From: Candidatus Yanofskybacteria bacterium RIFCSPHIGHO2_01_FULL_41_26
Lineage (GTDB): Bacteria; Patescibacteriota; Minisyncoccia; 2-02-FULL-40-12; GWA2-44-9
Direction of reading: 5' to 3'
Length of the DNA stretch: 64,000 nt
Assembly (NCBI GenBank): GCA_001794055.1
Contig: MGJB01000006.1
Coordinates: 90,168-154,167 of the forward strand
The translations under genes and the position numbers were made by a program. Shown piece by piece: positions 9,965 to 43,315 of this stretch. Under the pieces are notes generated by a model, which worked only from the letters and a program-made list of their open reading frames with translations, ran no database searches and was not told the DNA's origin. Every line of letters begins with the position of its first letter. Position 1 is the first letter of the stretch.

Positions 9965-10710
9965 TTGATAAACAAATTAAATCTAATTATATGCCAGATT
10001 GCCGCCAATCCATCTTTCCAATTTATCTTTTTACCGTCTTGATAAGTCCTGCCGCTATACGAAATTGGCACTTCAATAACTTTAAAATGTAACTTTCCGA
10101 TCCAAGCAGTTAATTCGGGATCAATACCAAATCTTTTGGATTTAAGATGGGGGTAGATTTGGTTTATTGAGTCCTTGGAAAAAACTTTATAGCAAGTGTA
10201 CATATCGGTTAGTTTAACTCCGCTTAAAATATTGGACATCCAGTTTAATGCCTGGCTGAACAGATAGCCACTTTTGTAAATAATTTTGTTTTTCTGTTCT
10301 GGTTTCATAAAACGCGAGCCATAGACAACATCGGCCTTGTTTTCTATTATGGGTGTTATCAGATTAGGGTATTCTTGCGGATTGTACTCAAGATCGGCAT
10401 CTTGAATTAAAATAATATCCCCCGCTGCCTCCTCGAACCCCCTTTTTGTAGCCGCACCTTTACCCATATTCTTATCTAAAAAAACGACATTATACTCCAC
10501 CTGTGGATAACCGACTTGCGAAGTCGGTATGTGGATAAGTTGATTTAGTATCTCTCTAGAGCCATCGGTTGATCCGTCATCAACTAAAATAATTTCTTTC
10601 TTGAGAGGCAAACTAACTGCCTCAACAGCATTGATTAATTTTCGCAAAGTTCTTTCTTCATTATAAACCGGGATAATGATGCTCAATTTTTTACAATCAA
10701 ATTCGTTCAT
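9961..10710 (-). CDS. Glycosyltransferase family 2 (DPM1-like polyprenol-phosphate glycosyltransferase)
   Basis: SIIIPVYNEE, VDDGSTDGS, QDADLEY, VYGSRF, EVPISY; start chosen at MNEF. Confidence 0.88.
   Translation of the reverse strand: MNEFDCKKLSIIIPVYNEERTLRKLINAVEAVSLPLKKEIILVDDGSTDGSREILNQLIHIPTSQVGYPQVEYNVVFLDKNMGKGAATKRGFEEAAGDIILIQDADLEYNPQEYPNLITPIIENKADVVYGSRFMKPEQKNKIIYKSGYLFSQALNWMSNILSGVKLTDMYTCYKVFSKDSINQIYPHLKSKRFGIDPELTAWIGKLHFKVIEVPISYSGRTYQDGKKINWKDGLAAIWHIIRFNLFIK
10500..10538 (+). repeat. Rearranged intragenic copy of the RAYT REP
   Basis: CCTGTGGATAACCGACTTGCGAAGTCGGTATGTGGATAA; read as LIHIPTSQVGYPQV in the GT2. Confidence 0.9.
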
Positions 10711-11848
10711 AAATTTTAGCAAATTCATTGGCTATAATATTCCAATTGTATTTCTCGGCAACCAATGCTCTGCCATTATTAATAATTTTTTCTCTTAACT
10801 GTTTGTCGCTTAGCAATAATATAATTTTTTCAGCTAAATCTTTAGGGTCGGAAACTTTGCAAAAAAGACCCGTCTGCCCGTTTTTTAAAAAATCAGGGAT
10901 TCCACCTACGGCCGTACCTACTATAGGCAATCCTGCCGCCATTGCCTCCAGAAACGCCGTGCCAAGACCCTCTGAAAGAGAAGGCCTGACAAAAATATCC
11001 GCCATAAATAAATATTTTGGCAATAAATCATTTGAAATGTCCCCCAAAAATTCAATGTGATTTTCCAACTTTAAATTTTTAACTTTTAACTTTAAATTTT
11101 TTTCTAACGGGCCGTCTCCCACTATCATTAGCTTGGCATCAGGAATTTCTCTGATAACCATGGCCACTGCTTCTATCAAATCTCCGATACCATTTTTCTT
11201 AACTAATCTCGAAACCGTAATAATGACTTTTTTGTGATTCATGATTCGTGATTCATGATTAGTGAATTTTTCCAAGTCTACTCCGTTTGGTATCACGCTT
11301 ATCGGTATTTTAGGATTTTGGGATTTAACATATTGTGCAAGATAATTACTGATCGCCGTAACTGAATCTGTTTTTCTAAAAATAAGATATCGGAAAAATC
11401 GCATCAACCACGACTGCTTATTTAAAACTTTCCCTTCCTGTATGGTGACGATGAGCGATGTTTTAGGATATATCCATTTCAGCAACCAACCTCCGCCAGC
11501 CGCCTGAGAAGCCTGAAAAGCATGAATGATATTATACTGGCCATATTTGCGCATCAACTGGTGCGCTTTTAAAAAAATAGCTATTGGGAAAAAATTTTTG
11601 GGCAATAAAAAATTGAGAAGGCTAAAGGAATTACCGACGCGATATATATTCACGTTGCCCATTTGTTCAAATGCAGGGATATTTTTTGATCCGCCTCCGC
11701 CAGTAGGGGCGGATGGCGGACGAGAGGTAATTAAATCAAAATAAATTCCAGGCAATCTGTCTGTTATGTTTTTTATAGCAAGCTCAGAACCGCCCACTTG
11801 AGGCAAATAAGCTGTAGTAAGTATTAGAACTCTGGATTTTTGAGTCAT
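10697..11848 (-). CDS. Glycosyltransferase family 4
   Basis: YLPQVGGSE, EGLGTAFLEAMAAGLPIVGTAVGG; start chosen at MTQK. Confidence 0.9.
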   Translation of the reverse strand: MTQKSRVLILTTAYLPQVGGSELAIKNITDRLPGIYFDLITSRPPSAPTGGGGSKNIPAFEQMGNVNIYRVGNSFSLLNFLLPKNFFPIAIFLKAHQLMRKYGQYNIIHAFQASQAAGGGWLLKWIYPKTSLIVTIQEGKVLNKQSWLMRFFRYLIFRKTDSVTAISNYLAQYVKSQNPKIPISVIPNGVDLEKFTNHESRIMNHKKVIITVSRLVKKNGIGDLIEAVAMVIREIPDAKLMIVGDGPLEKNLKLKVKNLKLENHIEFLGDISNDLLPKYLFMADIFVRPSLSEGLGTAFLEAMAAGLPIVGTAVGGIPDFLKNGQTGLFCKVSDPKDLAEKIILLLSDKQLREKIINNGRALVAEKYNWNIIANEFAKIYERI

Positions 11849-11876
11849 TTTGTGGTAATTTTGGCATAAAATAACA

Positions 11877-15385: not shown

Positions 15386-15424
15386 AACAAATATAAAATA
15401 CCATAATTTACAAAAATTTCAACC

Positions 15425-16723: not shown

Positions 16724-16798
16724 ATTTTAAAACATATTAACTTAAAAACAAAAGACCCGCAAATGGGTCTCCTGTTTTTAAAACAAAAATTTAAATTA

Positions 16799-18037: not shown

Positions 18038-18038
18038 T

Positions 18039-18452: not shown

Positions 18453-18464
18453 ACTTGAATTATC

Positions 18465-19568: not shown

Positions 19569-19631
19569 ATGTTATTAATTATAATTCAACAGTCTAATAC
19601 CGCACAAGCCCACTTATCAACAACCCTTATT

Positions 19632-21233: not shown

Positions 21234-21257
21234 TGAAAATTTATTGAAAATTGAAAA

Positions 21258-24928: not shown

Positions 24929-26903
24929 TGAAATATTTACTTAAAAAATCTTTTGCCTGCGTATTGTTTTTATCCAATCTCACAGCTTCTTTGAAAAAGG
25001 CCTGGGCGTTTTCAAGCCGGCTTAAGTTCATATAAACCACTCCCAAAATAAAATAATATTGACTCTCTTTCAAGCCTAAATCAATCGCCATTTTTATATT
25101 TTCCGCCCCCAATTGCTGATTTTGTTTATCCGAGTAAGAAACGTGAATAAATCCTTTGTGGAGATAAGGATATGGATTTTTGGGATCAATTTTTATAACT
25201 TCATCGGCAAAATAAGCCGATGCTTCCAGCCAATCAATTTTAAACAAAACGCGTGACAAAATAAGATTTAGGTCGGCCTTGTTTTTATTTGAGTTTTTTA
25301 TATTAGCAGATATTTTATCTATGGCATTTTTATCAATAATGGAAAATTTAGAAATAACCCCGGTGTTTTTACTATTATTCTTAAGCAGAATGATTGCATC
25401 TTCGTTAATATAAACAATTTTCCAGTCCAGGTTTTTGGCAATATTTCTTAAAAAATTATCGGCCCAAGGCGTAACATCATTATATCCAAAAAATATGAAG
25501 TTGATGCCATATTTCCCTGAAAATTCAAGCCACTTTTTCTTATCCTCTTGCATCGGCTTATATGTCTCGCTAAAAAACTCAACCGAATATGCTTCTGGCC
25601 TGTTGTCAACAAAAACTTTCTCTTGGGGGTACAGCTGCCATATCAAATATCCTCCAATATCAAAATTATTAAACATTGGTCCTTTGATATTGTTTTGTTT
25701 GACAAAATCAACAGCTCTTTCCAGTCCATTCGGAACAGAAAAACCGGATACCCTGGAAACTCCCATATACCTGTAATATGTATTATTTGCCACAAAAAAA
25801 ATAAGCAAAATAATCAACGCGGAAAACAGAACTTTAAAAAAACTGCTCAATCTTTTAACTTGAGGTTTAACTTCAAGTTTATAGAGATTAAACCTCTGTA
25901 GAACATCTGCCAGTAGGATCGCCAATATCGGGAAAGACGCAAGCGCGTACAACGGCAAATTGCGTAACATCCTGAATCCAGCATACACAAAAAATGCCAT
26001 AGTAAGTATTTCAAAGACCCTTTGTTTCGATTTTTTTGCGGTCAGTATCAAAGAAATAACTAAAAGTACCACCGAAAGTTTAAAAATAAAAACCGGCAAA
26101 AGAAAACCTCTAAGGTTGGCCAGAAAAGAAAGGGTTTGATTCTCAACTATGTTGTATCCGTACTCGTTCAGCACTTTAAAGGGCAAAAGTGCACCTTGAA
26201 TTCCGTTCGGATTTATAAGTGTTGCCAAGCTGGTTAGTGATCCAATCAACACTATTCTGATAAGGTCCGACCTTTTAGAAACAAGCCGGTCTATGAGAAA
26301 TGCTAACAACAGAAATGGTCCGATAAAAAAATAAATGTGCAAATTTACCCAAAACAATTCCAAAATCGGCAAAAACCAGAGAAAAAAATAATTTTTTTCA
26401 TATTTTGCCTTTAATATAGCAAACAAGAAAAATGACAAAATGACGAAACTGAATATCTCCGGTCGGACTTCCGTTCGCTGGATAAATATGAACATTGAGA
26501 GAAGGAAAGATACTAAAAGAGACCAGAAACCTGTGGATAACCGACTTCGCAAGTCGGTTATCCACAGGTGTTTTATAGTAAAAAATAGTAACAAAAACGC
26601 AATCAGTACCAAGGCGGTTTTAACAAGAGTTAATCCGATAAATCCAAAGTAACTGAAAATACCAAAAAATATTACCTCGCTTAACCAGTGATGGTTGATA
26701 AAAGGGAAATCCGGCTCGGTAAAAGAAAATAAATTTGTCTTTGGAACCTCTTTTGTCTGCCAAATAATCTCGCCAACCTTAAGATGCCGACCGATATCTT
26801 GGCCGATAGTGTCAAAGTTGTGAATCAAAAAACTCCCCAAAAGTACAAAAATGAGAACAAATAAATAGTTTTTCTTAAGGAAGTACAACAATGGTTTTAC
26901 CAT
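24921..26903 (-). CDS. Polytopic GT-C-like membrane protein with C-terminal TPR
   Basis: DIGRHLKVGE, NHHWLSEV, RPEIFS, WVNLH, GGYLIW, VFVDNRPEAY; start uncertain. Confidence 0.68.
   Translation of the reverse strand: MVKPLLYFLKKNYLFVLIFVLLGSFLIHNFDTIGQDIGRHLKVGEIIWQTKEVPKTNLFSFTEPDFPFINHHWLSEVIFFGIFSYFGFIGLTLVKTALVLIAFLLLFFTIKHLWITDLRSRLSTGFWSLLVSFLLSMFIFIQRTEVRPEIFSFVILSFFLFAILKAKYEKNYFFLWFLPILELFWVNLHIYFFIGPFLLLAFLIDRLVSKRSDLIRIVLIGSLTSLATLINPNGIQGALLPFKVLNEYGYNIVENQTLSFLANLRGFLLPVFIFKLSVVLLVISLILTAKKSKQRVFEILTMAFFVYAGFRMLRNLPLYALASFPILAILLADVLQRFNLYKLEVKPQVKRLSSFFKVLFSALIILLIFFVANNTYYRYMGVSRVSGFSVPNGLERAVDFVKQNNIKGPMFNNFDIGGYLIWQLYPQEKVFVDNRPEAYSVEFFSETYKPMQEDKKKWLEFSGKYGINFIFFGYNDVTPWADNFLRNIAKNLDWKIVYINEDAIILLKNNSKNTGVISKFSIIDKNAIDKISANIKNSNKNKADLNLILSRVLFKIDWLEASAYFADEVIKIDPKNPYPYLHKGFIHVSYSDKQNQQLGAENIKMAIDLGLKESQYYFILGVVYMNLSRLENAQAFFKEAVRLDKNNTQAKDFLSKYFNE
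26530..26568 (-). repeat. Perfect intragenic copy of the RAYT REP
   Basis: Identical to 38548-38586; read as HLWITDLRSRLSTG in the 24921 CDS. Confidence 0.95.
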
Positions 26904-27522: not shown

Positions 27523-27540
27523 GAGAAGATGTTAACCAAA

Positions 27541-28719
27541 TTAACGTGAAAAGTCAAAATATCCAGAAAAAAGAGCTCTCAAACCACTCACAACAAATGT
27601 CCATGGACTTGACGATTTAACTTGAAACTCAGGAATAGTAAGAGGAATAGAAACAAAATCAGGGTCATGTTCTGATTTGCGATAATGACCATAAATATAG
27701 ACTTTGTATTGCTTTGTGAAGTCCAGCCCAAGGCCATCATAAATAAATGACTTATCTTGATTACCCTCCGTTACTTTCATCTGTTTGGTCCAAAGGGGAA
27801 TTTGAGCATTTTTATCATCAGAAATCATAATCAAATAGTCAGGGGTAGAGTCAACGGGCCAACTGCTAGCTATGCTCCACTTAAAAGTTGGATAGATTCC
27901 TGCTGTTCGCTGGTTATCAGTTGGACTTAAAATATCCACGGGGCTCAAGAACATCAATTTGGTTTCCGATGATGGCCGGGTTTCCTGTCCGTCTTTATCC
28001 GCGCCCACGACATAATAGATGTACTCCCCTTCTGAATAGTTTGCCGCCGGCAAGTATGCAACCGCGTCCCTTCCGCCGGGAGGCACGATTCTCTGAATAG
28101 ACCAGTACCCGCATTGGCCCGCTTCGGTCATCATCCATTCTCCGTCAATATCTATGTCTTCACAACCGGTTGAGGGCATCTCTTCAAAAGTAGCAACTCG
28201 GACAAAATATGCATGACCTGGCTTTTTTTCATACAATCGGAAATTCTCAATTTTGTCCGCCTCTTCATCAGAATATTTAAAAACAATCCTTTGGCCGATA
28301 CGGCCGAAGTTTGAGGTGATATGAGAAATAAGCCAATCAGCTCTTATGTAATCCGGGGCCGGAAATTGAAGATTAACTTTTGCTGGAATGAGCGGAACAG
28401 AAGAAACACTCGGAATTGGAGTCGTTGTGCCCTCCGTAGCCTTTGGCGAAGAGTGGGGCGAGGCCGACTCTAAAACAATTGGTTCTCCTTCTTTAATAGA
28501 TGCTACTTCTTTTTTGGAAACAACTTTTACGCTTTGCCATTTAAAATTACGAAAGTTAAACACTTCAATACTGCTTACCCACTTCTTTGTATTGTTATTG
28601 ATTAAGTAAACCTTAATATCGCCTTTGGCCCTTAACAGTGTTCCGTCCAGATAGCCGGCATTTGCGGCAAAGGAAAACGAGAAGAACAAGACCAAAATTA
28701 AAAACCTAATTTTTGACAT
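27541..28719 (-). CDS. Secreted protein with DGTLLRA-GD-KVY surface repeat and Ig/FN3-like C-terminus
   Basis: Signal peptide; DGTLLRAKGDIKVYLI...FKWQSV module; ILSP...PTFKWS. Confidence 0.62.
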   Translation of the reverse strand: MSKIRFLILVLFFSFSFAANAGYLDGTLLRAKGDIKVYLINNNTKKWVSSIEVFNFRNFKWQSVKVVSKKEVASIKEGEPIVLESASPHSSPKATEGTTTPIPSVSSVPLIPAKVNLQFPAPDYIRADWLISHITSNFGRIGQRIVFKYSDEEADKIENFRLYEKKPGHAYFVRVATFEEMPSTGCEDIDIDGEWMMTEAGQCGYWSIQRIVPPGGRDAVAYLPAANYSEGEYIYYVVGADKDGQETRPSSETKLMFLSPVDILSPTDNQRTAGIYPTFKWSIASSWPVDSTPDYLIMISDDKNAQIPLWTKQMKVTEGNQDKSFIYDGLGLDFTKQYKVYIYGHYRKSEHDPDFVSIPLTIPEFQVKSSSPWTFVVSGLRALFSGYFDFSR

Positions 28720-28753
28720 GTCTTAATGATACCATAAAGTCGGGCCCTGAAGA

Positions 28754-28785
28754 AATCAAAACCCGCCTTTCGGCGGGTTTTGATT
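28754..28785. terminator. Bidirectional intrinsic terminator downstream of the S-layer-like gene
   Basis: AATCAAAACCCGCC-TTTC-GGCGGGTTTTGATT. Confidence 0.85.
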
Positions 28786-28830
28786 CTCTAACAGTTCCTT
28801 AGAAATCAGAACTGTCGGATGTTTACCAGA

Positions 28831-31800: not shown

Positions 31801-32583
31801 TGTCTTACCTGAAGTCAATCTTTTTGCTCCATCGTAGACATATACATTACCAAAGTCATCAGTGGTACCAGGGCCTAATCTCTTAAGAGTCACGGTGTTG
31901 ACTGTACCCGAACCACTTACTCTAACTCTTAACATCTCAACTCCGGTGGCATTGTTGGTAATAGTCTGGGCTGACGGATTTCCAGGCGCCAACATAACCG
32001 ACAACGGTCCTGAAACTACTGGAGCCGGGGCAGCAACTGAACCGCCTCTTGCATAAGCAGGAACTTGATTTACTGAAGAGTAATTAGAACCTACAGAATA
32101 CAGAGCAAATTCAGCCGCATTGATGACGAAAACCTTCTTGAAGAAATTCGGATCATCGGCAACCGCCTGTGCACCAGAGGTATTAACCCAGTGCAACACG
32201 GCTACATCTTCTCCGGTTGTTTCTATTCCATAAACTTTCTCATCTCCGTCAACTCGGAATAAACCGGAAGTTACAAATGCATCTCTGGCAGCAGCAGATA
32301 CATTCTTAACACTGGCAAATCCTCCGAGGTGTCCGTAAAGATTAAAGATTTGCGGATTCAAGAATAATCTCTTGTATCCCCAATCGTTGACGATATAGAC
32401 ATCCGGGTCATCAGAACCGGCTGCGCTAATCGTGTTGCCTTCTTTCAAACCATAGTCTGAAGGAGCAACTGCGAAAGCTGTAAGAGACAGCACTCCCGAA
32501 AGGGATAGTACCGTCGAAACAGCTGTAAGGATCGCGGCGGTTTTTATCAAACCGACACGATTGCCTTTTAATAAATTCGACAT
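28831..32583 (-). CDS. S-layer-like major surface protein (1250 aa)
   Basis: Signal peptide, Ala/Thr/Gly/Ser-rich beta-strand repeats, own promoter and terminator, GC-richer codons than neighbours. Confidence 0.72.
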   Translation of the reverse strand: MSNLLKGNRVGLIKTAAILTAVSTVLSLSGVLSLTAFAVAPSDYGLKEGNTISAAGSDDPDVYIVNDWGYKRLFLNPQIFNLYGHLGGFASVKNVSAAARDAFVTSGLFRVDGDEKVYGIETTGEDVAVLHWVNTSGAQAVADDPNFFKKVFVINAAEFALYSVGSNYSSVNQVPAYARGGSVAAPAPVVSGPLSVMLAPGNPSAQTITNNATGVEMLRVRVSGSGTVNTVTLKRLGPGTTDDFGNVYVYDGAKRLTSGKTFSSASGEASFLLNIAVDGSKDLSFVGDILTGGAGNVNYFQLLGVTAAGGSVVSGAPLSGNNFAISGASSGRLDVAKVGSLSDPTVGQKQAQLSEFKLTANTEAASVKRLTMLNDGTLKPADLTNVKLKTGAMEWAGSVTSTNYLVFDLGSGYTISKGGNATFKVYGDVGGKKDETVDLYFETAPDVWAVGDQYGQGMDTTNATAAQGIAALDTAAEATTLTLMGGALTLVYNGPNATTIGTQVADVTLLRFSMTAASNIEIKQTEFTICADSGNDGTYDNAATEGDWDDLNDVKVWNEDTNTVVMGPKDGTAFDHADDSGSCPDNATGAQEQFTDTLDLLAGVTYNFKVTGDVDTSLGSGTQLLDTDSVFKVILDDYSDDTAAVSKMKYAGTNTAVASADIVPRSDIAGSNITITSSALTLSLAGSPTDQTKIRGMKDVDAVGITFAAGQASALKVTTIKITGYAADSGATLDEGTDTTDTGISIANATAKVQLYEAGTGVLIAGSDKISSNLLGTSGTGTMTFSNLDWNIPAGTSKTMLVRVDLSNNTASGTAGDVYSFDIAATGDVTSLDSDSNTVNPGAAAVNGTTTPTQVLTVKNSGSMTLATAASSPVKGALYWGQVNAPVSKFRLTATDEAQYIEKLTIAASSSDEDTSAKNVKNVILTYKTKSGATMTKFQSFSNAASANFNWSTTDADRPYVPKDASLEIAVNADMKTKDEGATQTTGTTADTTLVAFSLDLVDRYDGSFTNGFRAVGEGSGTVLDGTSTNINDVSGAYNQTVYRVFPKIEQVALSSPYSLIGTPTVFKFSVTAMGLATANLRFDNEHNGSGSINFEVVASGDSHVNTTTSTTFSVLDEQGTVIDGPSALRGLGTPGAADTSQTISMGNGSSGVRPDWNASISFNFTGQDIEIAGGETRTFSIRLNNPTQHYANAGTTGRAADYFQVTLQDDLAGLINWVGNYDNTTNSLDTPSATGIIRSLPLYGPTFQR

Positions 32584-33025
32584 TTTAATTTTTTAATAAC
32601 TGAACTGGTGCCGTCGCTCTGACATATCTATATTTTTAAATTTCGATATGTCGAGTCAACCAACGCCAGAACAGGTTTTTAATAACACTAATTAACTGAA
32701 CTGACCGACCACAATATTTCTAAAGTCCACCTATTTCGACCTGGCAAATTTTAGAAGTGGTTTACAACTTTAAAACTTAATTTCATTTCTAATCTAAGCA
32801 TCAATTTTTTCTTGCTGTCCTGATTGTCAATGTCCTTTCATTGGACTGCCTGCCTCTATAGATATTTCGATATGTCTATCTACGATGTCAATATTTCGAA
32901 ATATCACTAAAGGCAGAAAGTCCGATATCTACTCAAAAAACGACCTGAAATTAGATCGATTACGAATCTTTTAATTCTTTAATTCTTCATATTTAATGCC
33001 GTTTAACGGCCAGTATTGTCCGCCA

Positions 33026-33054
33026 ATACTACACAAAATACATTTGACAGTCAA
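33026..33054 (-). promoter_or_regulatory. Sigma70 promoter for the S-layer-like gene
   Basis: Minus strand TTGACT-17 nt-TAGTAT. Confidence 0.6.
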
Positions 33055-33160
33055 TGGTGACAAACCATGACTTCATAATAAGTATAAAGGTTATAATAAG
33101 GCCTGCAAGGGGTCAAGTGTGGATAAATCAGGCCATATTTTGGCGTAAAATCAAGGTTTA

Positions 33161-36100
33161 TTATTTGATACTCATTACCTTGCTGCCATACCCCCAAATA
33201 ACCCTATTTTCACTTAAAACCGGGGATATAACCGAGCTTACTCCCGTTGAAATGTGCCATCTCTCATTGCCGTCCTTATCAACGCCATAAACATCTCCCG
33301 ACTGGGTAGAGAAATAGGCACCGCCGTCTTTGTCTACTGCTATCTGTTGGTTTATTTTACCTTCGGCCTGGAATGACCAACTAACCGTAAGGTCAGATTT
33401 ATTAAGCGAGAAAAGTTTTGAACCGGAAGCAGGATTTGACCAGCTGTAATCTAAACCGACAAGAAGATTGGTCGGGGTAATTGAAACCATTGTTGCCCCC
33501 GAACCATTGCTGGCCGGTTCAATAACAGTCGTATTCAAAACAGAACCGTCAGGTGGAATGACGAACATTCTAAACCCGAAAGAAGAACCCCCATCATAAC
33601 CGATAGCCGAATAAGTCTTGCCTGTTGATTTGTCATGTGACGGATTCGACTGCATACTGCCATTGGCGCCGGTATAAGCCAAATCCCAAATTTTTGAGCC
33701 ATCAGACAAATATTTTGTAAAAAATTGATTACCGCTTATCCGTCTTGCCACAACACTATCGCCATTTTCAAGAACAATCGGAACAAAACCACTCAGGCCA
33801 GGATTACTGGCTTGGGTCTTTGTTGAGCCGCCTGTATTTAACACGACAAGCTTGTCGTTGCCGCTTGAATAGGTAAAATATGGTTCACCTTTTTCGGATA
33901 CAGTAAAAGCTTTGATCGTACTTGCATCATCATAATCCCATTTCTTGGTTCCGTCGGAATTAAGAGCCGTAAAAGCCAAAACTCCGCCAGCTCCGATACG
34001 GCCAAAATACACCACACCATCAGATAAGATTGCCGGGGTGCCAATACTGACATTGGTGGCGTATTCCCATTTTTGTACGCCATTTTTATCAAGTTTTATT
34101 AATTTTCCGGAACCGTTGGCCGAGCCGAAATAAATACCTCCGTCAGCTGAAACAACCGGCTGACCTACAGTATTTCCGGCTCCGGCATCAAATTCCCAGC
34201 TTATTGTTGCCCCAACACCCGGCCCCGCCAAACTAGCCGCAAAAGACGTGTGATATTGGTCTTTACCGAGCATAGACCAAGCCCCGTCGTCTATCGCGGA
34301 TGGGAAACTCACCTCGGCTATATTAGAAATATCTGAACACTTATCCACAGTTTCCCCATTACCGACTTCGCAAGTCGGTATGTTGATAACTTTTGTTTTC
34401 AGGGCAAAATAAAGTGTCTGGCCATAGTCATGGGCAATATCGGGAGTTACGATTTGCGATTCTCCCTCATTTCCGACGCTAGGCAAACTAGAGCTGGCTA
34501 CTTTTATTGCTAAATCCCAACTGGCGGAAGAAGGGAAACCGGTGAGCGAATATCGCAAATCGTAACTCAAACTGGCCGGACTGTAACCGCCTGGGTCGGG
34601 CGCCGACCATGAAATGGTAAGCGGTGAGTTGATGGTGGCCAATAAGTTGGTAACGGCTGATGGAGCTTGAGTTATAACATCAGCGCTATTCTGGGATTTA
34701 GGAGTTGATGTGGCGGTAATCCATCCGCCATCCATCCGTTGGGCAGTTTTTTTAGTGTCATTGTTGCCAATAATTTCGTCATTGCCGTTTATTTTCCACG
34801 CATTTGAACCATCAACTTGGTCAATTACAGTTCCGGAAATGTCTTTCAAAACTAAATTTTCTCCCGTATTGCCTAAAGCGCCGGTGTATATTTGGTCGGC
34901 ATCAATATCAGGCAACGTTTGATCATCGGTCCTTTCTAAGACATAAAAGCCAAACGGACTTATATTGCCAATCAGTGTTATGTCTGGCGTACCGTCTTTT
35001 GACTTAAGATTCCAATTGTTAAGATTTATGGTTTTGTTGGTGATGTTACGAAGTTCTATCCACTCATCGTTCGATAATGACGCTGAGGTTCCCATCCAAG
35101 CAATTTCGTTTAGGACAATGTCACCAAGATTGGCAGTGTCACCATCGGGTTCTGGTGACGGGATGGGTGACGGTGACGGCGATTGTGACGGAGTGGGAGT
35201 AGGAGTTGCTTGCGGTGAGCTTGTCGAATCCGGTGTCGAAGATGACCCGCCTCCTCCGCCGCCATATGAAACAATAACCTGAACCGCTGTGCTGTTTTTG
35301 GCTTTAGGCGTTCCGTTTATCAACCCGCCGGTTGCATCTTTATTTGTTGATGTCCCGGAAAAACTTTTCCAATTTGAGGCGCTATTACCGGCTTTCATCG
35401 AATCTATTCTCTCCATTGAATTCTTTGATGTTGAGTCACCGAAATACCATGCTTCACCCGTGCCACCAACCACATCTACCACAATGCCAATGCTATCAAA
35501 CAGTCTGATCATTTCGCCTGCATTGTTAAGGCCTCCTTGGCCAAAACCTGCAGCCAAATCAGCTGTTATATCGCTTACGGTATTATCATCTGTCCTCTCA
35601 ATTAAAAAATAGGAATTCGCTTGAATAATTGTCCCTTCCGAGAAAATAATATCAGGGGAATCATCGCTTGAAACCAACCGCCAACTGGATATGTCTATTG
35701 GGTTGTTTTCGGTGTTATAAAGCTCAATCCATTCATCTGTTGCAGAGGCATCCGTCCCCGCCCAGGCAATCTCGTTTATGACCACTGTGCCGAATTTCTT
35801 TGCTGTGGATAATTTTGGGATAGGAGATGGGGTTGGGGTAGTTGACAGCTTCGGTGTCGGTGCTGGTGTTTTTGATGGTGACAGAATAGGTGACACAAGA
35901 GGTGACACTATTGTGACACTGGTGACAGGTGTCTTTGTCACCAGTGGTGACGGTGACACTACTTGATTTGTCACCTTCGGTGTTGGTGTCACCATGTTGT
36001 CACCATCATTTGAGTTATCCACAATGTCATTATCGGTGCTAATTCCTATTAACCCCAGCAATCTTGCAAACCAGTTTTTCTCTAGCGGTTTATTGGCATA

Positions 36101-37075
36101 TTCTTGTTTTGCTTTCTCCGCTTCTGTTAAAAACAAGTTCAACGCCCCAGAGCCGTTAAGAACTACCTCTCTTGATAATCGGTCCCAATAGCCATCGAGG
36201 ATATCCTCACTCGATATTGTTAGTTCACCAGTTTTAATGATATTTTTAACTAATACATAATTACCACTCTTGTCTTTTTTATACCCTACTAAATCCTCCT
36301 CTCCTTTTTGATTTTTCTTATAAATCCAAAAATCTATTGTTGGGTTTGCATAGTTACTATCATTAATCGTATCTTTACTAAAAAAATTCCCATTTGAATA
36401 CTTGGCTATTTTATCAAAATATTCGCCCAGATTAGCAAGAATCACGGGCTTCAATCCTTCTTTTTTAAATTTAGAAGCAACATTAAAGTTATCAGGACTC
36501 CATTTCGCCATTTCATGTTCATACGGACTGCCGAATGTTCCTACCGGCGGATGGGGATCATTTCGAGTGTGGTCGGGAACTCCCATATCTTCCAATAAGT
36601 GCAGAAGGTGACCAAATGCAAGCATGGCTCTTTGTCTGTCTCCTTGAGCATAATCATTCATTGCTCGTTCATAAGAAAAGTCATCTGGACTTTTAATTAC
36701 CCCCGCTGATTGAGCAATACTATTGTTGGACATGGCAAGATTTGATTGAGCGCCAGAACTCATCGCCCACTGTTTGGATGTAGGGAATCCGGCCATACCA
36801 ATATTGTGAACTGGGTCATAGAAATGATTCATCGGCCTCATACCTTGGTCTTCATCCATGGAACCCTGAATTATCCAAGTTTTATCTTGATTATTTAACT
36901 TTTGAGAAAAGTTAAGATTATAAAAATCAACAATCTCGTCGGTTAACGCCGGGTGAGTATGCGGCTGGTCGTAAGCCGATGCTTTGGTAATGAAAAAGGC
37001 GCCAATAAGCGCCCCTCCTACTATTAAGTTTTTGATTCGTTTATGCCTCATAACTGGCTGATTTTCCATATCCAT
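33161..37075 (-). CDS. Secreted multidomain protein: Zn-phospholipase C/P1-nuclease-like domain, two lamin-tail domains, PQQ-type beta-propeller
   Basis: THPALT..DED..NHFYDP..GHLLHLLEDMGVPDH; two (I/L)NEIAW.GT...DEWIEL.N repeats; (K/R)WEY/WDY/WSF propeller blades. Confidence 0.75.
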   Translation of the reverse strand: MDMENQPVMRHKRIKNLIVGGALIGAFFITKASAYDQPHTHPALTDEIVDFYNLNFSQKLNNQDKTWIIQGSMDEDQGMRPMNHFYDPVHNIGMAGFPTSKQWAMSSGAQSNLAMSNNSIAQSAGVIKSPDDFSYERAMNDYAQGDRQRAMLAFGHLLHLLEDMGVPDHTRNDPHPPVGTFGSPYEHEMAKWSPDNFNVASKFKKEGLKPVILANLGEYFDKIAKYSNGNFFSKDTINDSNYANPTIDFWIYKKNQKGEEDLVGYKKDKSGNYVLVKNIIKTGELTISSEDILDGYWDRLSREVVLNGSGALNLFLTEAEKAKQEYANKPLEKNWFARLLGLIGISTDNDIVDNSNDGDNMVTPTPKVTNQVVSPSPLVTKTPVTSVTIVSPLVSPILSPSKTPAPTPKLSTTPTPSPIPKLSTAKKFGTVVINEIAWAGTDASATDEWIELYNTENNPIDISSWRLVSSDDSPDIIFSEGTIIQANSYFLIERTDDNTVSDITADLAAGFGQGGLNNAGEMIRLFDSIGIVVDVVGGTGEAWYFGDSTSKNSMERIDSMKAGNSASNWKSFSGTSTNKDATGGLINGTPKAKNSTAVQVIVSYGGGGGGSSSTPDSTSSPQATPTPTPSQSPSPSPIPSPEPDGDTANLGDIVLNEIAWMGTSASLSNDEWIELRNITNKTINLNNWNLKSKDGTPDITLIGNISPFGFYVLERTDDQTLPDIDADQIYTGALGNTGENLVLKDISGTVIDQVDGSNAWKINGNDEIIGNNDTKKTAQRMDGGWITATSTPKSQNSADVITQAPSAVTNLLATINSPLTISWSAPDPGGYSPASLSYDLRYSLTGFPSSASWDLAIKVASSSLPSVGNEGESQIVTPDIAHDYGQTLYFALKTKVINIPTCEVGNGETVDKCSDISNIAEVSFPSAIDDGAWSMLGKDQYHTSFAASLAGPGVGATISWEFDAGAGNTVGQPVVSADGGIYFGSANGSGKLIKLDKNGVQKWEYATNVSIGTPAILSDGVVYFGRIGAGGVLAFTALNSDGTKKWDYDDASTIKAFTVSEKGEPYFTYSSGNDKLVVLNTGGSTKTQASNPGLSGFVPIVLENGDSVVARRISGNQFFTKYLSDGSKIWDLAYTGANGSMQSNPSHDKSTGKTYSAIGYDGGSSFGFRMFVIPPDGSVLNTTVIEPASNGSGATMVSITPTNLLVGLDYSWSNPASGSKLFSLNKSDLTVSWSFQAEGKINQQIAVDKDGGAYFSTQSGDVYGVDKDGNERWHISTGVSSVISPVLSENRVIWGYGSKVMSIK
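34341..34389 (-). repeat. Degenerate intragenic copy of the RAYT REP
   Basis: TTATCCACAG...TACCGACTTCGCAAGTCGGTA-TGTTGATAA; read as INIPTCEVGNGETVDK. Confidence 0.85.
35877..36004. repeat. Array of ~11 GGTGACA/TGTCACC heptamers inside the 1304-aa CDS
   Basis: Direct and inverted copies counted by eye. Confidence 0.8.
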
Positions 37076-37614
37076 ATATTAGTCATCGTATTCTTAGAAA
37101 AAATAGTTTCTGCATTAAATCTACCTGCTGGAAGTGTGATTTTTTGGGTTTTTCCACCCGAAACAGGAAGTTCCGTTGTTGAAGGAGTTTCTCTTGTGTA
37201 TGAATATGTATATCTCACTTCCTCATCGTTACGATTTTGAGGAGTCCAAAATTTTCTGTTTTGTTCTAGTTCACCAATGAGATTTACCAATAAATTTTGA
37301 GATTGATATTCTTGAAATGTTTTTAGCCAGTTATCTTGTTTGCCCACCACAAAATACTTACTCGCCAAAGTCGTATCTCCCTTGCGCAAGGCGTCCAAGA
37401 ACATATCATAAGTTTCCTCTGGGGTTTTACCGCCATATTTGTCTTCACGGTAGGGTTTTTCCCATTGGGCCTGGAGTCGTTTGGCTTCCCAATTTGCCCG
37501 AAGATTATTGACATACGGCATGCCATTAAGGACAAACCACAAGACACCACCAGCCAGCAAAACCAAAAAGAGCACCCCGTACCAGCTCTTTAAGTTAATC
37601 CACAATTTATTCAT
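37048..37614 (-). CDS. Conserved hypothetical membrane-anchored protein (NTF2-like?)
   Basis: N-terminal TM; YGGKTPEETYDMFLDALRKGD...ASKYF; overlaps start of the downstream gene. Confidence 0.65.
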   Translation of the reverse strand: MNKLWINLKSWYGVLFLVLLAGGVLWFVLNGMPYVNNLRANWEAKRLQAQWEKPYREDKYGGKTPEETYDMFLDALRKGDTTLASKYFVVGKQDNWLKTFQEYQSQNLLVNLIGELEQNRKFWTPQNRNDEEVRYTYSYTRETPSTTELPVSGGKTQKITLPAGRFNAETIFSKNTMTNIWIWKISQL

Positions 37615-37798
37615 TAGTAAATCCTTTTGAACTGCCGCGAAATTAGAAGGTCCGCTAAATTAAGGAGGGATTTATAATCTATCGCACCCAATTCGCGCAG
37701 CAGATCAAAAAAATCTACTCTTCAAAAAATTTACTCTTTTTTCTTACACTTTTATTTATCAAAACAACTTCTCACTGTCAACCCAACCAATCCACCAC

Positions 37799-37837
37799 CC
37801 TGTGGATAACCGACTTGCGAAGTCGGTTATCCACAGG
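37799..37837 (+). repeat. 39-bp REP palindrome, left flank of RAYT
   Basis: CCTGTGGATAACCGACTT-GCG-AAGTCGGTTATCCACAGG, perfect 18-bp arms. Confidence 0.95.
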
Positions 37838-37861
37838 TACACTTTGGCAATCCAACAAACT

Positions 37862-38536
37862 ATGGCAACTGAACAAAATTTTTACCACACGCTAAATAGG
37901 GGTGTCGAAAAACGTAATATATTCCTAGATAAGCAGGACCATTTTCGTTTTATTCACAATTTATATGAACTCAATAATGAAGATAGGGTTGATACCACCT
38001 TTCATTCTTTTAAAGAAGATCCGAATCTTACCGACTTCGCAAATCGGAAACAAAGAAAAATATTGGTAGACATTCTTGCGTTTTGTTTAATGCCAAATCA
38101 TTATCACCTGCTTCTTTCACCAAAAATAGAGGGTGGGGTTCCTAAGTTTATGAATAAGATAAACATTGGCTACGCAAAATATTTTAATAAAAAATATAAG
38201 AGAGTTGGAGCGTTGTTTCAAGGAAGATATAAAAAAATATTAATAGCAGATAATACTCACTTTCTCCACCTTCCTTTTTATATCCATTTCAATCCGCTTG
38301 ATTTAAAATATCCTGAATGGAGAGAAAATAGAATATTAAATGCTGAAAAAGCTTTAGGGTTTTTAAAATCCTATCGTTGGAGCAGCCATTTAGACTATTT
38401 GGGTGTTAAAAATTTTCCGTCGATTATAAATAATGGCTTACTTACAGAAATTTTTGACGGAAGTAAGGGTTACGAAAAACTGATTAATAATTACCTAAAA
38501 GATATTCAAATAGATCCAGAGGTTGCGTTAGAATAA
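37862..38536 (+). mobile_element. REP-associated tyrosine transposase (RAYT, HUH Y1, IS200-like)
   Basis: YHTLNRG, FCLMPNHYHLLL (HUH), YFNKKYKRVGALFQGRYK, YIHFNP, YRWSS; flanked by inverted REPs. Confidence 0.9.
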
Positions 38537-38547
38537 AGAATGGTAAC

Positions 38548-38586
38548 CCTGTGGATAACCGACTTCGCAAGTCGGTTATCCACAGG
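38548..38586 (-). repeat. 39-bp REP palindrome, right flank of RAYT (inverted loop)
   Basis: CCTGTGGATAACCGACTT-CGC-AAGTCGGTTATCCACAGG. Confidence 0.95.
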
Positions 38587-38590
38587 TGGT

Positions 38591-39316
38591 TTATTTTTGT
38601 TTGCGGACAAGAATATTGGCGAGGTGAAGTGAATCAAAAGTTCCAGCATCAACCCAATATTTTTTGGCCTTGACATAATCCATTGCGCCTTCCCTGATAT
38701 AAAAATTATTCACATCAGTTATCTCGTATTCTCCTCGGTTGGATAGTTTAAGGTTTTTGATAACATCAAACACCCTATTGTCGTAAAGATAAAATCCCGT
38801 TACAGCCCAGTTGGTCGCAGGTTTTTTGGGTTTTTCGACAATATTTTTAATCGTTCCGTCTTTACGAAAAGAGGCCACGCCAAATCTTTGCGGATCAGAA
38901 ACTTTTTTTAAAACTATCAGGCCTCCCCTTTCTTTTTTAGAAAATTTCTTTACAGCGACGGAAAGATTGTCTCCGAAAATATTATCGCCTAAAACAAGGG
39001 CGACCGAATTGTTTTCGGCGAAAGACCTGGCTAAACCTAAACCATGAGCGATTCCCAATGGATCAACCTGAATTGTATAATATAAGTTGACACCCAGTTC
39101 ACTGCCGGAACCAAGAAGTTTCACATATTGGTCTGTATGTTCCTGCCCGCAAACTATCAATATATCCTTAATGCCGGCATTTTTAAGGGTAAGAATGGGA
39201 TAGTGGATTATCGTTTTATTTCCCACAGGCAAAAAGTGCTTTCCGACAACTTTTGTAACCGGCCAAAGGCGCGTGCCTTTACCGCCCGCCAAAATAACAC
39301 CTTTGATCATGTACAT
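38591..39316 (-). CDS. rmlA: Glucose-1-phosphate thymidylyltransferase (RmlA/SpsI-like)
   Basis: GVILAGGKGTRLWP, LGDN, RFGV, VEKP, RGEYEITD, WVDAGT. Confidence 0.85.
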   Translation of the reverse strand: MYMIKGVILAGGKGTRLWPVTKVVGKHFLPVGNKTIIHYPILTLKNAGIKDILIVCGQEHTDQYVKLLGSGSELGVNLYYTIQVDPLGIAHGLGLARSFAENNSVALVLGDNIFGDNLSVAVKKFSKKERGGLIVLKKVSDPQRFGVASFRKDGTIKNIVEKPKKPATNWAVTGFYLYDNRVFDVIKNLKLSNRGEYEITDVNNFYIREGAMDYVKAKKYWVDAGTFDSLHLANILVRKQK

Positions 39317-39325
39317 TAATTACCA

Positions 39326-39922
39326 CTAAACGATCGAATAGTAAACGGCGTTGTCCTTGGCCCATTTACGGATCAAGCCTTCGGCAGCTAATTCTTTTAA
39401 GTTCCTTTTTACAGTCCTCTCGGATAATATATTGAATTCTTCAATAATTTCTTTGGTGCGAGAATTGGGAGATCGTTTGATAAAATTAAAGATCCTATCT
39501 TTGTTTGAACTCTCCTTTAAATTTTTAAAGTGAGAATTTTTAGGAACAGAAGCAGGTGGCTTATTCTCTTTCAGTTTCGGGGTTAATTGGATTAGCTGAC
39601 CAGACGACTTGATCAGATCGAGTTTGAAACTTAGAAGATTTTTGCGGGTGTAAAGAAGGGGAGTGATTAATGTGGATTTAGAATGTTCCAGATAATCTAG
39701 AAGTTCTAATAAATCATCAGTTGCATTTCTGAATTCAAGAAAATTAATATTATGCGACACTACATCCTCTCCTCCTAAAGTAAGCAATTTAATGTAGCCG
39801 GCAACAAATTCGGATATTTTATCGTATAATTTCTGAGCTAGAAACTTGTCTTTCAATCCAGAAAAAAGTTTCACCAAAAATATTATAGAATTTATGAAAT
39901 TTTTTAAACCATCTTCTTCCAT
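39326..39922 (-). CDS. Helical N-terminal domain + DeoR-type winged HTH
   Basis: C-terminal LSERTVKRNLKELAAEGLI. Confidence 0.65.
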   Translation of the reverse strand: MEEDGLKNFINSIIFLVKLFSGLKDKFLAQKLYDKISEFVAGYIKLLTLGGEDVVSHNINFLEFRNATDDLLELLDYLEHSKSTLITPLLYTRKNLLSFKLDLIKSSGQLIQLTPKLKENKPPASVPKNSHFKNLKESSNKDRIFNFIKRSPNSRTKEIIEEFNILSERTVKRNLKELAAEGLIRKWAKDNAVYYSIV

Positions 39923-39940
39923 GGCTCGGATACTAACACA

Positions 39941-40954
39941 TCAAAAAAAATTATTGAAGAGTCCTTTCGCTTTATCCCAAAATTCCGGATGGCCGTTTTG
40001 TTTCATCCAATACCACCATTCGGCGCCCCAAAGATAAAAAGTATCAAACCCGGTCTTTGAAGAGAAGCTTATCATCTCACCAAACTTGTCTATTCCCATT
40101 CTCTGTAACTGGATATCAATGGGCGTATCGATTATTGGCTGAAGCAACCATGGTTCGGCAGAAAGCTCGATAACCATTGATGGTTTTGTTCCATAAATCA
40201 AACGAGTTAAAGAGTGTTTAATTCTGAAAAAAGCTGGCGTTATCGGATACCGAAGAGGACCGATGGCATTTCTCCACCACACATAAAGATATATGCTAGT
40301 CCCAAACACATCGCCTTTTCTATATGCTTGATACCAAGTTCCAAATTCACCACTATCAGTAAGTATCACTGGATGAACGGGGTCCAACCGATGAACCAAA
40401 GCAATTTCTTCATCCAAAATTTCTGAAGCTTTCTCATTATGCTGTTCGCAAGAAGACCGGCTGAAAAATCTTAGAAAAATCTCGTTTTCAACTTGCCAAT
40501 ACCGCAAAGCTGGCGAATTTTTATACCTATTTACAACCTTTTCAATATATTTTACGAGCTCTTGTTTGTGTTGATCATGAGACAAAGGAACAACCCAATC
40601 TGGAGTATGGCACTCCGGCCAGCCGGGAAGCCGATGGCCAACAGCAATTATTACCGAAGCATTCCTCTTTTCAGCCTCTTGCACCTGAAAATCAAGTTCA
40701 GAAAAATTGTAAATACCCTCTTTCGGTTCAGTAAGAGGCCAATGGGCAACGAGTCGCAGATTTCTTACTTTTAAATCATCGAGAACAGCCAAATATGTTT
40801 TCTTCCAGTCAAGTTTTAACTCATTAGAATGAAAAACACTAAAAGAGACCCCGTATACAAAATTTTTTTCAGGAGACATGTCCCATGATAAAATCCAAAG
40901 AAAACTTAAAGCAGCAATAAAAACCCAAAGAATTATATTTTTTTTGTTGATCAT
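39941..40954 (-). CDS. Membrane-anchored GH-A clan glycoside hydrolase (GH42/GH5-like)
   Basis: W..TEPKEG.YNF, PGWPECH.P, WQVENE, IELSAEPW. Confidence 0.68.
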   Translation of the reverse strand: MINKKNIILWVFIAALSFLWILSWDMSPEKNFVYGVSFSVFHSNELKLDWKKTYLAVLDDLKVRNLRLVAHWPLTEPKEGIYNFSELDFQVQEAEKRNASVIIAVGHRLPGWPECHTPDWVVPLSHDQHKQELVKYIEKVVNRYKNSPALRYWQVENEIFLRFFSRSSCEQHNEKASEILDEEIALVHRLDPVHPVILTDSGEFGTWYQAYRKGDVFGTSIYLYVWWRNAIGPLRYPITPAFFRIKHSLTRLIYGTKPSMVIELSAEPWLLQPIIDTPIDIQLQRMGIDKFGEMISFSSKTGFDTFYLWGAEWWYWMKQNGHPEFWDKAKGLFNNFF

Positions 40955-41820
40955 CTGAATAACATCAAAAAACCAACGCCAATGAAAGATATTCCAAGAA
41001 GCTTTTTGATGAGTATTTTTCTGGTAATATTTTCGGCCACATCAGGAAATATCTTTCCGAAAATAAGGGCCAGAATAAATACAAAAGAAAACTGTACGCC
41101 CAAAAGAGCATTCACCAATGAAACATTGCCGAGTTGAATAGCGTAGTAAAGGGTCAAGAAACCAACCCCCGCGATAATCTTATTTAAAATAAACAGAAAA
41201 AGGGAGGACTGTGGAGCATTTTTCAAGGAATTTGAAATTTCCCCCCTTGCTCGCGGAAAAACAAGCATAAACAGAGACGAACCGACAAAACCTATCCGTG
41301 TCCAAAAAATACCATTAACAAAATCGGAATAATTAAACGTCCACTTGAGAAGAACCAACGAAAGGCCGAAAAATAAACCTGCCAAAATTGAATATCTGAA
41401 AATGTCCCGCCTGATCATGCCAAGAAACAAGATTCCTAAAACCAAAAACACAAAAGCCAATCCATTATTTGTTCCTAGTTTTTCTTTTAAAATAAAGACT
41501 GATAAAACATAAGTAAAAATCGCGCTTAAAGTAGCAACATTGATAGATGCCACCGACACATCGCTTAATTTTATAGATTTATAAAGAAAGAAAAGAGCAA
41601 TAAAAAAAGCTGTTCCCGATACGAACGAAATAAAAAAATATTGAACACCAAGCCAGGCCACTCCAAATGGAATTAAAACCACGGCAAGAATGCTCAAGAT
41701 AGAAACTCCGAATGCATAAGCAAACGGACGAGGGAGAGAAGAGGAGAGGAGATGCTTGTCGATTACGAAAGCAATTGCATTTACAAAATAAGCTGTTAAG
41801 GCGAGATAAATCCAAAGCAT
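40951..41820 (-). CDS. DMT/EamA family transporter
   Basis: About 10 TM helices in two repeats; LKEKL, GNVSLVNAL. Confidence 0.75.
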   Translation of the reverse strand: MLWIYLALTAYFVNAIAFVIDKHLLSSSLPRPFAYAFGVSILSILAVVLIPFGVAWLGVQYFFISFVSGTAFFIALFFLYKSIKLSDVSVASINVATLSAIFTYVLSVFILKEKLGTNNGLAFVFLVLGILFLGMIRRDIFRYSILAGLFFGLSLVLLKWTFNYSDFVNGIFWTRIGFVGSSLFMLVFPRARGEISNSLKNAPQSSLFLFILNKIIAGVGFLTLYYAIQLGNVSLVNALLGVQFSFVFILALIFGKIFPDVAENITRKILIKKLLGISFIGVGFLMLFR

Positions 41821-41860
41821 GAAAATATTACTAATCTAAAATTATTAATTTATTATCTTG

Positions 41861-42129
41861 GAGCTAACGCTATGGATATTTCTCAGTCGCGATACCGGCA
41901 AATTGCGAGTGGCACAAGAAGCAACAACGAAGGTGTACTCATTGTACTCCGAGGAGGAGCGACGCAGTGTCCACTCGCAATTTGCCTTATCCCTCCTGGT
42001 TCTAGCTATTTTGTCCTATCGCTGCGTTACTTCTCGTCGCTGTAGTACCAACTACAACTTCCTTGAAGTGCCTGGCGCTAAGACAAAATAGCTAAGAACG
42101 CGACTGAGAAATATCCATAGCATTAGCTC
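41861..42129. mobile_element. MITE/REPIN-like structured element with 31-bp terminal inverted repeats
   Basis: 41861-41891 vs 42099-42129 inverted with 1 mismatch; two internal ~16-bp stems. Confidence 0.65.
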
Positions 42130-43315
42130 TACATATTTTAGCATATTCAAAAGCCGAAGGACGAATTTTTCTGGCAAATGTCGCATAATCAATCTCAACT
42201 AATCCGAAACGCGGTCTAAAACCATATGCCCACTCGAAATTATCCAAAAGCGACCAGTATAAGTACCCTCGGATATCAACGCCGTCATGAATGGCCTGCC
42301 AAACCCATTTTAGATGTTCTTTTATAAATTTTCCACGCCGTTCGTCCTTGCTATCAGCAACTCCATTCTCGGTGATAAAAATAGGTTTTTTATACTTTTT
42401 AAGCTCCATGAGACGATGGTAAATACCTTTGGGATAGACGTCCCAATTCATTTCTGAGACAAAATCGACCCGCCGCAGTTCACGGGTGCCCGGCAAGCGC
42501 ACGGTCGTATAGTAATTTAAACCTATAAAATCCTGGTAGGGAAGAGTCTTATTCCAAAAGTATAAATTTACGAACTGATCCAAAAACTTTACTATTCCCT
42601 TGAACACCGGATGACTCATAATGTGTAAATTATTTTCAACTCCCCCAACGAGTGGTTCTATATTGTGCGACGTTGAATCATACAATCCTTGGTTTTTCGG
42701 TGAAACATCATAAACCCTCTTTATTTCCTGATAGGCGAGTGTATGCGACCGAACTATATTATTCCGAACCTTGATTGCTTTGAAAATATTATGTTTTTGC
42801 GGCGGCCATTGTCCTTTTAAATATGAGCCTCCGGCGTATATCCAAGGCTCATTAAAAGTTATCCACAGCCCTACTCTATCTTTTAAATTATCCACAACAT
42901 ACTTTACATATCTTGTAAATATTGTCGGACTATCAATGTTTAGGAATCCTCCTTTTTCGGCGAACCAGACGGGGTTAGTGAAATGCCAGAGAGTTATCAT
43001 CGGCTCAATCCCCCTCTCCTTCAAGGCCTTGACGACATTGACATAGTGATGCATAGCTTCATGGTCAAATATCCCCTCCTTCGGTTCTATGCGGGACCAC
43101 TCAATAGAGAAGCGGTGAATATTTTGATTTAAACTCTTAGCAATATCAAAATCTTCCTCGTAACGGTTGTAACTATCGCAGGCCTTTCCTGAACGAAATT
43201 CGGGCGGACGAGATTTCTCCCATTCGGACCAGTCATTGTAATTGTCTCCTTCTATCTGGTGGGCCGATGTGGTGCTCCCCCACTTGAATCCTTCAGGGAA
43301 TTGCATGTAAGACAT
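42092..43315 (-). CDS. Beta-glucosidase, glycoside hydrolase family 1
   Basis: FPEGFKWG, AHQIEG, RFSIEWSRI, TFNEP, ITENG, WSLLDNFEW. Confidence 0.92.
   Translation of the reverse strand: MSYMQFPEGFKWGSTTSAHQIEGDNYNDWSEWEKSRPPEFRSGKACDSYNRYEEDFDIAKSLNQNIHRFSIEWSRIEPKEGIFDHEAMHHYVNVVKALKERGIEPMITLWHFTNPVWFAEKGGFLNIDSPTIFTRYVKYVVDNLKDRVGLWITFNEPWIYAGGSYLKGQWPPQKHNIFKAIKVRNNIVRSHTLAYQEIKRVYDVSPKNQGLYDSTSHNIEPLVGGVENNLHIMSHPVFKGIVKFLDQFVNLYFWNKTLPYQDFIGLNYYTTVRLPGTRELRRVDFVSEMNWDVYPKGIYHRLMELKKYKKPIFITENGVADSKDERRGKFIKEHLKWVWQAIHDGVDIRGYLYWSLLDNFEWAYGFRPRFGLVEIDYATFARKIRPSAFEYAKICRANAMDISQSRS

Follow-up and report, generated by a model that had tools for sequence, protein, structure and literature searches.

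REPtrons, in which repetitive extragenic palindromes (REPs) are partnered with a transposase of the RAYT family such as E. coli TnpA-REP (PDB 4ER8), are the closest described counterparts of the locus analysed here. The locus lies in a stretch of 64,000 nucleotides (nt; the window), positions 90,168 to 154,167 of contig MGJB01000006.1 from Candidatus Yanofskybacteria bacterium RIFCSPHIGHO2_01_FULL_41_26, an ultra-small bacterium of groundwater whose genome as analysed (G000; other G and L labels denote the genomes and loci of relatives) comprises 800 kb in 18 contigs. A single Y1-HUH gene at a fixed locus is framed by inverted hairpins, which share a 17-nt core, CCGACTTGCGAAGTCGG, with dispersed copies and carry in their arms the 9-mer TTATCCACA, a probable DnaA box. 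The hairpin repeat is almost certainly partnered with this resident RAYT, and our data lean towards a model where one Patescibacteria clade built DnaA sites into its RAYT repeat, the promoter coming under DnaA and the boxes spreading with the repeat. The principal features are as follows.

37862..38536, plus strand: Y1-HUH transposase-like gene (RAYT/TnpA-REP-like, 224 amino acids; Pfam Y1_Tnp, E 6e-10).
37799..37837, plus strand: upstream 39-nt palindrome, with inward box 37801-37809, core 37810-37826 and box 37827-37835.
37815..37843, plus strand: predicted sigma-70 promoter of the RAYT; the hairpin loop contains the -35 TTGCGA, and a 17-nt spacer separates it from the -10 TACACT.
38548..38586, minus strand: downstream palindrome, inverted relative to the upstream one and also terminator-like on the plus strand.
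38031..38047, minus strand: degenerate, box-free core with 1 mismatch, in frame in the RAYT (residues 45-61).
10502..10538, no strand assigned: dispersed copy with inward-0 and outward-2 arms, in frame in a GT2 glycosyltransferase gene (9961-10728, minus strand).
26530..26568, no strand assigned: dispersed full palindrome, in frame in a TPR-containing gene (24921-26948, minus strand).
34341..34389, no strand assigned: dispersed copy with a perfect box in its outward-12 arm and TGTTGATAA in its outward-2 arm, in frame in a lamin-tail-domain gene (33161-37075).

The locus works like a REPtron, yet departs from that class in two membership features, family score and extragenic location. The HUH and Y---NP core is present, with H80-x-H82 and Y140-x-H-x-N-P (including N144 and P145) invariant across 30 aligned sequences, and the AlphaFold model (mean predicted local distance difference test score, pLDDT, 84.7) has 4ER8 as its best Foldseek match (E 2e-5); a sequence search of solved structures returned nothing better than E 0.3. 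As in REPtrons, one resident gene sits between inverted hairpins and the dispersed copies are specific to the local enzyme. The RAYT occupies the identical locus in five of five congeners, and as a single copy at a fixed locus it is not an IS200/IS605 insertion sequence, which would be mobile and multi-copy. The genome holds two Y1 genes, 38% alike, and homologues of the RAYT were found in records of Candidatus Yanofskybacteria and other Patescibacteria. Unlike REPtron enzymes, the protein reaches 42.7 bits on the NCBIfam RAYT model NF047646, below the cut-off of 80. Whereas REPs are mainly extragenic, seven of the ten dispersed copies here lie in frame in open reading frames (ORFs) of at least 150 amino acids, tgt and mnmA among them. 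A further difference is that the hairpin overlaps a predicted promoter and carries DnaA boxes in its arms. There is also no evident GTAG foot; of the GT[AG]G class, GTGG does occur within the inward boxes but inside the extended stem, and it is absent from the outward arms and from most distant loci.

Tn5, a DDE transposon, provides a second comparison; unlike there, the enzyme here is fixed, the repeat measures 35-50 nt and the site stands at defined offsets from a swappable core. What is shared is a host-protein site embedded in the end of a mobile element, as the available text of PMC3347997 describes for the DnaA site of the Tn5/IS50 outside end, and IHF-binding E. coli REPs/RIBs likewise contain a host-factor site within the repeat according to the accessible parts of PMC3479197 and PMC3733652. 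The longer protein, a conserved serine motif after the catalytic tyrosine and flanking inverted repeats without a canonical foot resemble TnpA-Y1 subclass 2.1/TIRYT as characterised in the portions available of 10.1101/279083 and PMC3733652; unlike subclass 2.1.2 as presented there, the RAYT here has no detectable C-terminal Bac_DnaA_C or helix-turn-helix tail, a Pfam scan returning Y1_Tnp only. The superfamily survey, in its accessible text, gives no REP-like sequences near subclass 2.1, and the repeats of that subclass are unlike DnaA boxes (10.1101/279083). Palindromes in frame in working genes are known from Rickettsia palindromic elements and from intragenic GTAG/CGTC REPs (PMC3733652, accessible sections); unlike those, the same loops here hold species-specific cores, each copy bringing a DnaA box. 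Literature searches, which covered few subscription journals and mostly titles and abstracts, found no report of DnaA boxes in Patescibacteria RAYT repeats; this novelty could be affected by the REP tables in the supplements to 10.1101/279083 and PMC3733652.

Perfect copies of TTATCCACA number 14 in the window (10502, 10530, 26532, 26558, 33118, 34341, 35804, 36015, 37801, 37827, 38550, 38576, 42859 and 42888), against 0.49 expected and a maximum of 3 among 100 shuffles. The original prediction, made from the letters of the window, had counted 14, set them against roughly one chance box and noted a one-mismatch box at 34381, which is present and reads TGTTGATAA. Its description of the boxes as REP arms holds for nine of the 14, which belong to five copies of the core, but not for those at 33118, 35804, 36015, 42859 and 42888, which have no core nearby in G000, and the idea that all 14 are REP parts is thereby ruled out. 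The whole genome contains 37 perfect boxes where Markov models expect 7-10, and about 20 of them are carried by element copies. All 12 exact cores of the genome have a perfect box within 30 nt, compared with 0.3% of random windows; one further, degenerate core lies within the RAYT gene, in a variable, low-confidence loop of the protein. Eight other palindrome families have a box at 0 of 28 copies, which rules out a general attraction of hairpins to boxes. Box-free families, of which the genome has at least eight, are found for example at C1:6459, C2:28778, C6:163595 and C2:16470, and some resemble hairpins beside other RAYT homologues of relatives. The window as a replication origin is also ruled out, dnaA sitting on another contig.

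The upstream hairpin is predicted to fold at -20.7 kcal/mol (z -11). In a sample of 74 cores drawn from 10 genomes (every one of the 12 in G000 and, elsewhere, the part of the matches whose loci were retrieved), 68 have a box at no more than one mismatch, and among the 148 arms the box recurs at set offsets: inward at 0 nt (62) or 11 nt (6), and outward at 2 nt (11) or 11-12 nt (22). What had been taken for rearranged copies that lost symmetry are instead combinations of these arm types, without decay. Copies cluster weakly near the RAYT (3 of 10 within 30 kb, P 0.03), and a hand count from the GC-skew table saw no strand bias of the core, its GCG loop falling on the inferred leading strand in 8 of 13 cases. 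A metagenome scan for the bare core yielded mostly chance matches in GC-rich contigs; a box adjoined 10 of 82 matches, almost all of these in contigs of low GC content. When contigs of four DNA runs were aligned to 25500-43500, no clean excision or inversion joint could be distinguished from the repeats of other organisms. In many RAYT homologues the loop that precedes the HUH motif contains, in frame, a copy of the hairpin that flanks the gene (L017, L018, L230 and L232). An element also stands directly upstream of a gene, amid GTGG repeats, at C11:9800-9890 of G000, as it does at L076 and L261; we take the G000 gene to be mraZ and its GTGG repeats to be presumably like MraZ sites.

The upstream hairpin overlaps a predicted RAYT promoter, in which the -35 (37815-37820) and the -10 (37838-37843, 18 nt ahead of the ATG) are arranged such that box 1 stops 5 nt ahead of the -35 and box 2 falls within the spacer. 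The ATG at 37862 begins 24 nt after the palindrome, as the original prediction had it. In most close orthologues the promoter matches 9-10 of 12 consensus positions, with a -10 of TATAAT or TATACT, and a second sub-lineage has the order box, 4 nt, TTGACT, core as spacer, TATATT. The predicted architecture has the -35 within the loop or immediately ahead of the core and one box 4-5 nt upstream of the -35, the second box in the -35/-10 spacer being a trait of the G000 sub-lineage. In a survey of 42 distinct loci, 19 of 33 upstream hairpins (one of the 33 a run of N) overlap a promoter facing the RAYT and 2 of 33 one facing away, compared with 1 of 35 in each direction for the downstream hairpins, which usually have the same sequence. 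Within the clade of at least 59% identity, 12 of 14 loci have the promoter and all 14 have a perfect box, so the expectation that related REPs retain the boxes is borne out at this range. As promoter overlap is widespread and the boxes are nearly confined to the close clade, the overlap characterises the family, whereas the box was added within the clade. A divergent promoter, TTGACA-17-TAAATA at 37753-37781, lies 19 nt from the upstream box and faces 37048-37614; box 1 may serve both the RAYT and this gene.

Judged from sequence, the 9-mer is probably bound by DnaA. The host has a full DnaA, whose domain IV (SFPEIG...RDHSTVIHA) compares with SLPKIG...RDHTTVIHA in PDB 8BTG, the best structural match, and the sole PF08299 (Bac_DnaA_C) match in the genome is dnaA. 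Reading of the box by the RAYT or another paralogue through a DnaA-type domain was considered and rejected, no such domain being detected. The dnaA region holds degenerate boxes compatible with the 9-mer (TTTTCCACA, TTATCAACA, TCATCCACA and TTATACACA). The box sequence is conserved independently of coding and pairing, as seen in an intergenic excess, at silent sites and in unpaired arms. Once element copies are masked, 12 intergenic boxes are left in G000 where 0.82 are expected, and 4 coding boxes where 7.9 are expected. In the outward-12 arms, where the 9-mer is unpaired, 13 of 13 boxes are perfect although all 13 spacers are distinct, with 0.39 mismatches per spacer site. The claim that these 9-mers are DnaA-type boxes is thus well supported by indirect evidence, namely a standard domain IV, compatible boxes in the dnaA region and conservation where the sequence does not pair.

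The motif also reaches beyond the repeat. Each of 61 genomes searched has 6-42 boxes, compared with 0-10 for the reversed pattern (a control that differs in dinucleotides), and these genomes include ones without a match to this RAYT. Among 61 solo boxes outside long ORFs in G000 and five relatives, a -10-like hexamer follows 28-33 nt downstream at 15, where equal-size windows off this peak give about 1-7 and the opposite orientation gives 8 of 61. Conservation thus marks TTATCCACA as an order-wide host motif, enriched between genes and near predicted promoters.

At the RAYT locus and elsewhere, boxes persist as cores change. The core at the orthologous RAYT locus differs among G000, G002, G003, G005, G016 and others, with the flanks retaining a box, and most dispersed cores in each genome match the RAYT core of that genome. 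For nine of the ten sites with dispersed copies in G000, one or more of nine relatives also has a core, and loci were compared for those nine sites, with two rows mis-picked by pattern set aside and many loci chosen since they held a core. Among 20 shared-site cores in genomes whose RAYT core is unlike that of G000, 15 are nearer the local core, 2 tie and 3 are nearer the G000 core. None of 14 orthologous core-free sites has a box. Because shared cores follow the local RAYT and core-free sites are box-free, boxes appear to arrive with the element at coding sites and old sites to be refilled or rewritten; boxes as pre-existing targets at coding sites are ruled out by the same empty orthologues. 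Both orders, box first or element first, may nevertheless occur, as a box without a core persists at 33118 and 36015. The GT2 loop at the 10502 site is filled with the local core in G002 and G016, and is empty and box-free in G004 and G005. The 26530 site is filled in G016, with neither core nor box in G002, G003, G005 and G009, and the 34341 site has a different core in each of G001, G002, G003 and G005. The GT2, MnmA and TPR-gene loops hold unrelated inserts in other relatives (L172, L321 and L322; L182 at the 26532 site), and these protein loops are therefore general landing sites for in-frame repeats.

We propose that DnaA would tune RAYT transcription at the upstream hairpin, where the RAYT may in addition bind its own core as an operator. 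The RAYT would then cleave and strand-transfer single-stranded hairpins, inserting the cassette mostly in frame in tolerant protein loops, and old sites would be refilled or rewritten with the current core of the genome to leave the mix-and-match arms. Single-strand cleavage and strand transfer have been shown for E. coli TnpA-REP (PMC8266576, in the text available). Given the overlap of the hairpin with the predicted RAYT promoter, RAYT regulation is the best fit among the three roles that the original prediction offered for DnaA recruitment, and it is the likeliest role among those considered; that DnaA does act on RAYT transcription we regard as an evenly poised proposition. A more ambitious reading, doubtful when taken as a whole, is that a domesticated HUH nuclease keeps long-lived DnaA-marked sites and rewrites the 17-nt core to the current 'address', with DnaA and the RAYT co-occupying a network of promoter and in-gene sites such that RAYT expression reads DnaA levels. 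If true, the DnaA-marked, rewritten sites would represent a replication-coupled, self-updating DNA tagging system of Patescibacteria, not a selfish repeat.

Several observations weigh against DnaA sites having been built into a RAYT repeat. The RAYT promoter of G000 matches 8 of 12 consensus positions and is absent from the standard promoter scan list, and a perfect box was not found in the dnaA-dnaN region of five genomes, so that comparison with the boxes of the host's own dnaA region gives degenerate matches and none that is perfect. Of the 20 cores at shared sites, five are no closer to the local RAYT core than to that of G000, and the genomes are kin with some arms orthologous, such that counts are not independent. 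Retention of the box does not extend to most distant RAYTs: hairpins are present, but a box accompanies them at just 3 of 28 loci, and DnaA is therefore not a general requirement of RAYTs. Variation of the box in element arms falls at position 6 (17/111), whereas position 5, which is free in the E. coli consensus TT[AT]TNCACA as given in the available text of 10.1101/279083, does not vary. Unlike that consensus, TTATCNACA, which T. tengcongensis DnaA boxes follow according to the accessible part of PMC1888806, fits the position that varies here. Lastly, CT-GTGG is found at the inward boxes of 45 of 48 arms and resembles a REP cleavage site with its guide. This would be expected if the box were a by-product of REP anatomy, in which a CT cleavage site, a GTGG guide and the stem base spell TGTGGATAA and the RAYT, not DnaA, reads it as in a 'double-foot' REP. 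The base that varies is also position three of the tetranucleotide, which then reads GTTG or, in both arms of L007, GTAG. In the portions available of 10.1101/279083 REP feet have the form GT[AG]G and double-foot REPs are described, and in those of PMC8266576 cleavage falls between C and T and is tetranucleotide-guided. By the same account of PMC8266576, however, a GTGG guide predicts cleavage at CA or CC, not CT, and in outward arms GTGG lies 3' of the hairpin with all nine bases unpaired (13/13 perfect). Genomes in which this RAYT was not detected moreover still show enrichment and promoter linkage of the 9-mer, solo boxes are unexplained by a foot, and distant family members have hairpins without the 9-mer; we consider this explanation distinctly unlikely.

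Alternatively, DnaA may be a host cofactor of mobility that opens the duplex or extrudes the hairpin, giving the RAYT its single strand and tying events to the cell cycle, in the manner of host factors acting at certain transposon ends. The fixed offsets stand about one helical turn apart on either side (inward 0 and 11; outward 2 and 11-12), coding-region copies keep their boxes without an evident promoter role while empty sites are box-free, and a DnaA site occurs in Tn5 ends; but in Tn5 DnaA competes with the transposase (PMC3347997, in its available text for both), homologous RAYTs have flanking hairpins without boxes, and the hand count saw no strand bias of the core. Such a role seems unlikely, and it would be compatible with DnaA control of the RAYT promoter, the two being not exclusive. 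The most improbable of the alternatives is that the dispersed copies are datA-like sinks titrating DnaA from a low-affinity origin. In its favour, none of the 37 perfect boxes falls in the dnaA region, where the boxes are all degenerate, and a box pair is conserved inside the GH1 gene described below, where no promoter was called. datA itself requires a box cluster and an IHF site and stimulates DnaA-ATP hydrolysis, whereas here there are at most two boxes per copy, with no cluster, and 12 exact copies in all, so that this role from the original prediction is poorly supported. The load is also uneven: 12 exact cores occur in G000 against 2 found in G001, pattern matches number about 17-22 in G002, G016 and G032, and many relatives have no match to this RAYT, which argues against dosed control.

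The partnership of hairpin and RAYT touches open questions of how RAYTs benefit their host and how REPs spread, in Patescibacteria whose gene control is almost unstudied. The system supplies short defined substrates, as natural core variants with their own enzymes and as filled and empty alleles of the same sites, together with a promoter where DnaA box and enzyme hairpin overlap. It thereby permits direct tests of RAYT specificity, of a broad regulatory role for DnaA upstream of promoters in these bacteria, and of the replacement of repeat types at a fixed site.

The boxes in the window that stand apart from a core are the following.

33088..33126, minus strand: solo box (33118-33126) with predicted promoter TTGACC-17-TAACCT, facing a 1250-amino-acid gene (28831-32583).
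35804..35812, minus strand: solo coding box, absent from aligned congeners.
36015..36023, plus strand: solo coding box in a linker of gene 33161-37075.
42859..42896, plus strand: two direct boxes 29 nt apart in a GH1 glycosidase gene (VVDN...LWITFNEP), not repeat-borne.

The box at 33118 lies 1 nt before its predicted promoter and is kept in four of four aligned congeners; hairpin-like inserts stand beside it in G002 and G003, and G000 has no repeat copy there. About 500 nt (32584-33087), including an inverted repeat at 32840-32926, separate the promoter from the 1250-amino-acid gene and are possibly a structured leader. The 36015 box is kept in G002 and G005, each with an adjoining core, has 1 mismatch in G001 and is absent in G003; it is likely the remnant of, or a target for, an element. 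The 35804 box is likely a chance occurrence. At silent sites of the GH1 pair, ATA, ACT and TTT are kept in 12 of 12 orthologues, GTT in 10 of 11, GTG in 9 of 11 and GAT in 9 of 9, against a gene-wide background of 0.53-0.63 for those residues (0.53-0.59 for the first three), with windows at the 3' end of the gene scoring equally high. This in-gene pair is conserved across several genera. With no evident core between them, conserved intergenic box pairs 22 or 55-56 nt apart also occur in a sister family (L369-L380).

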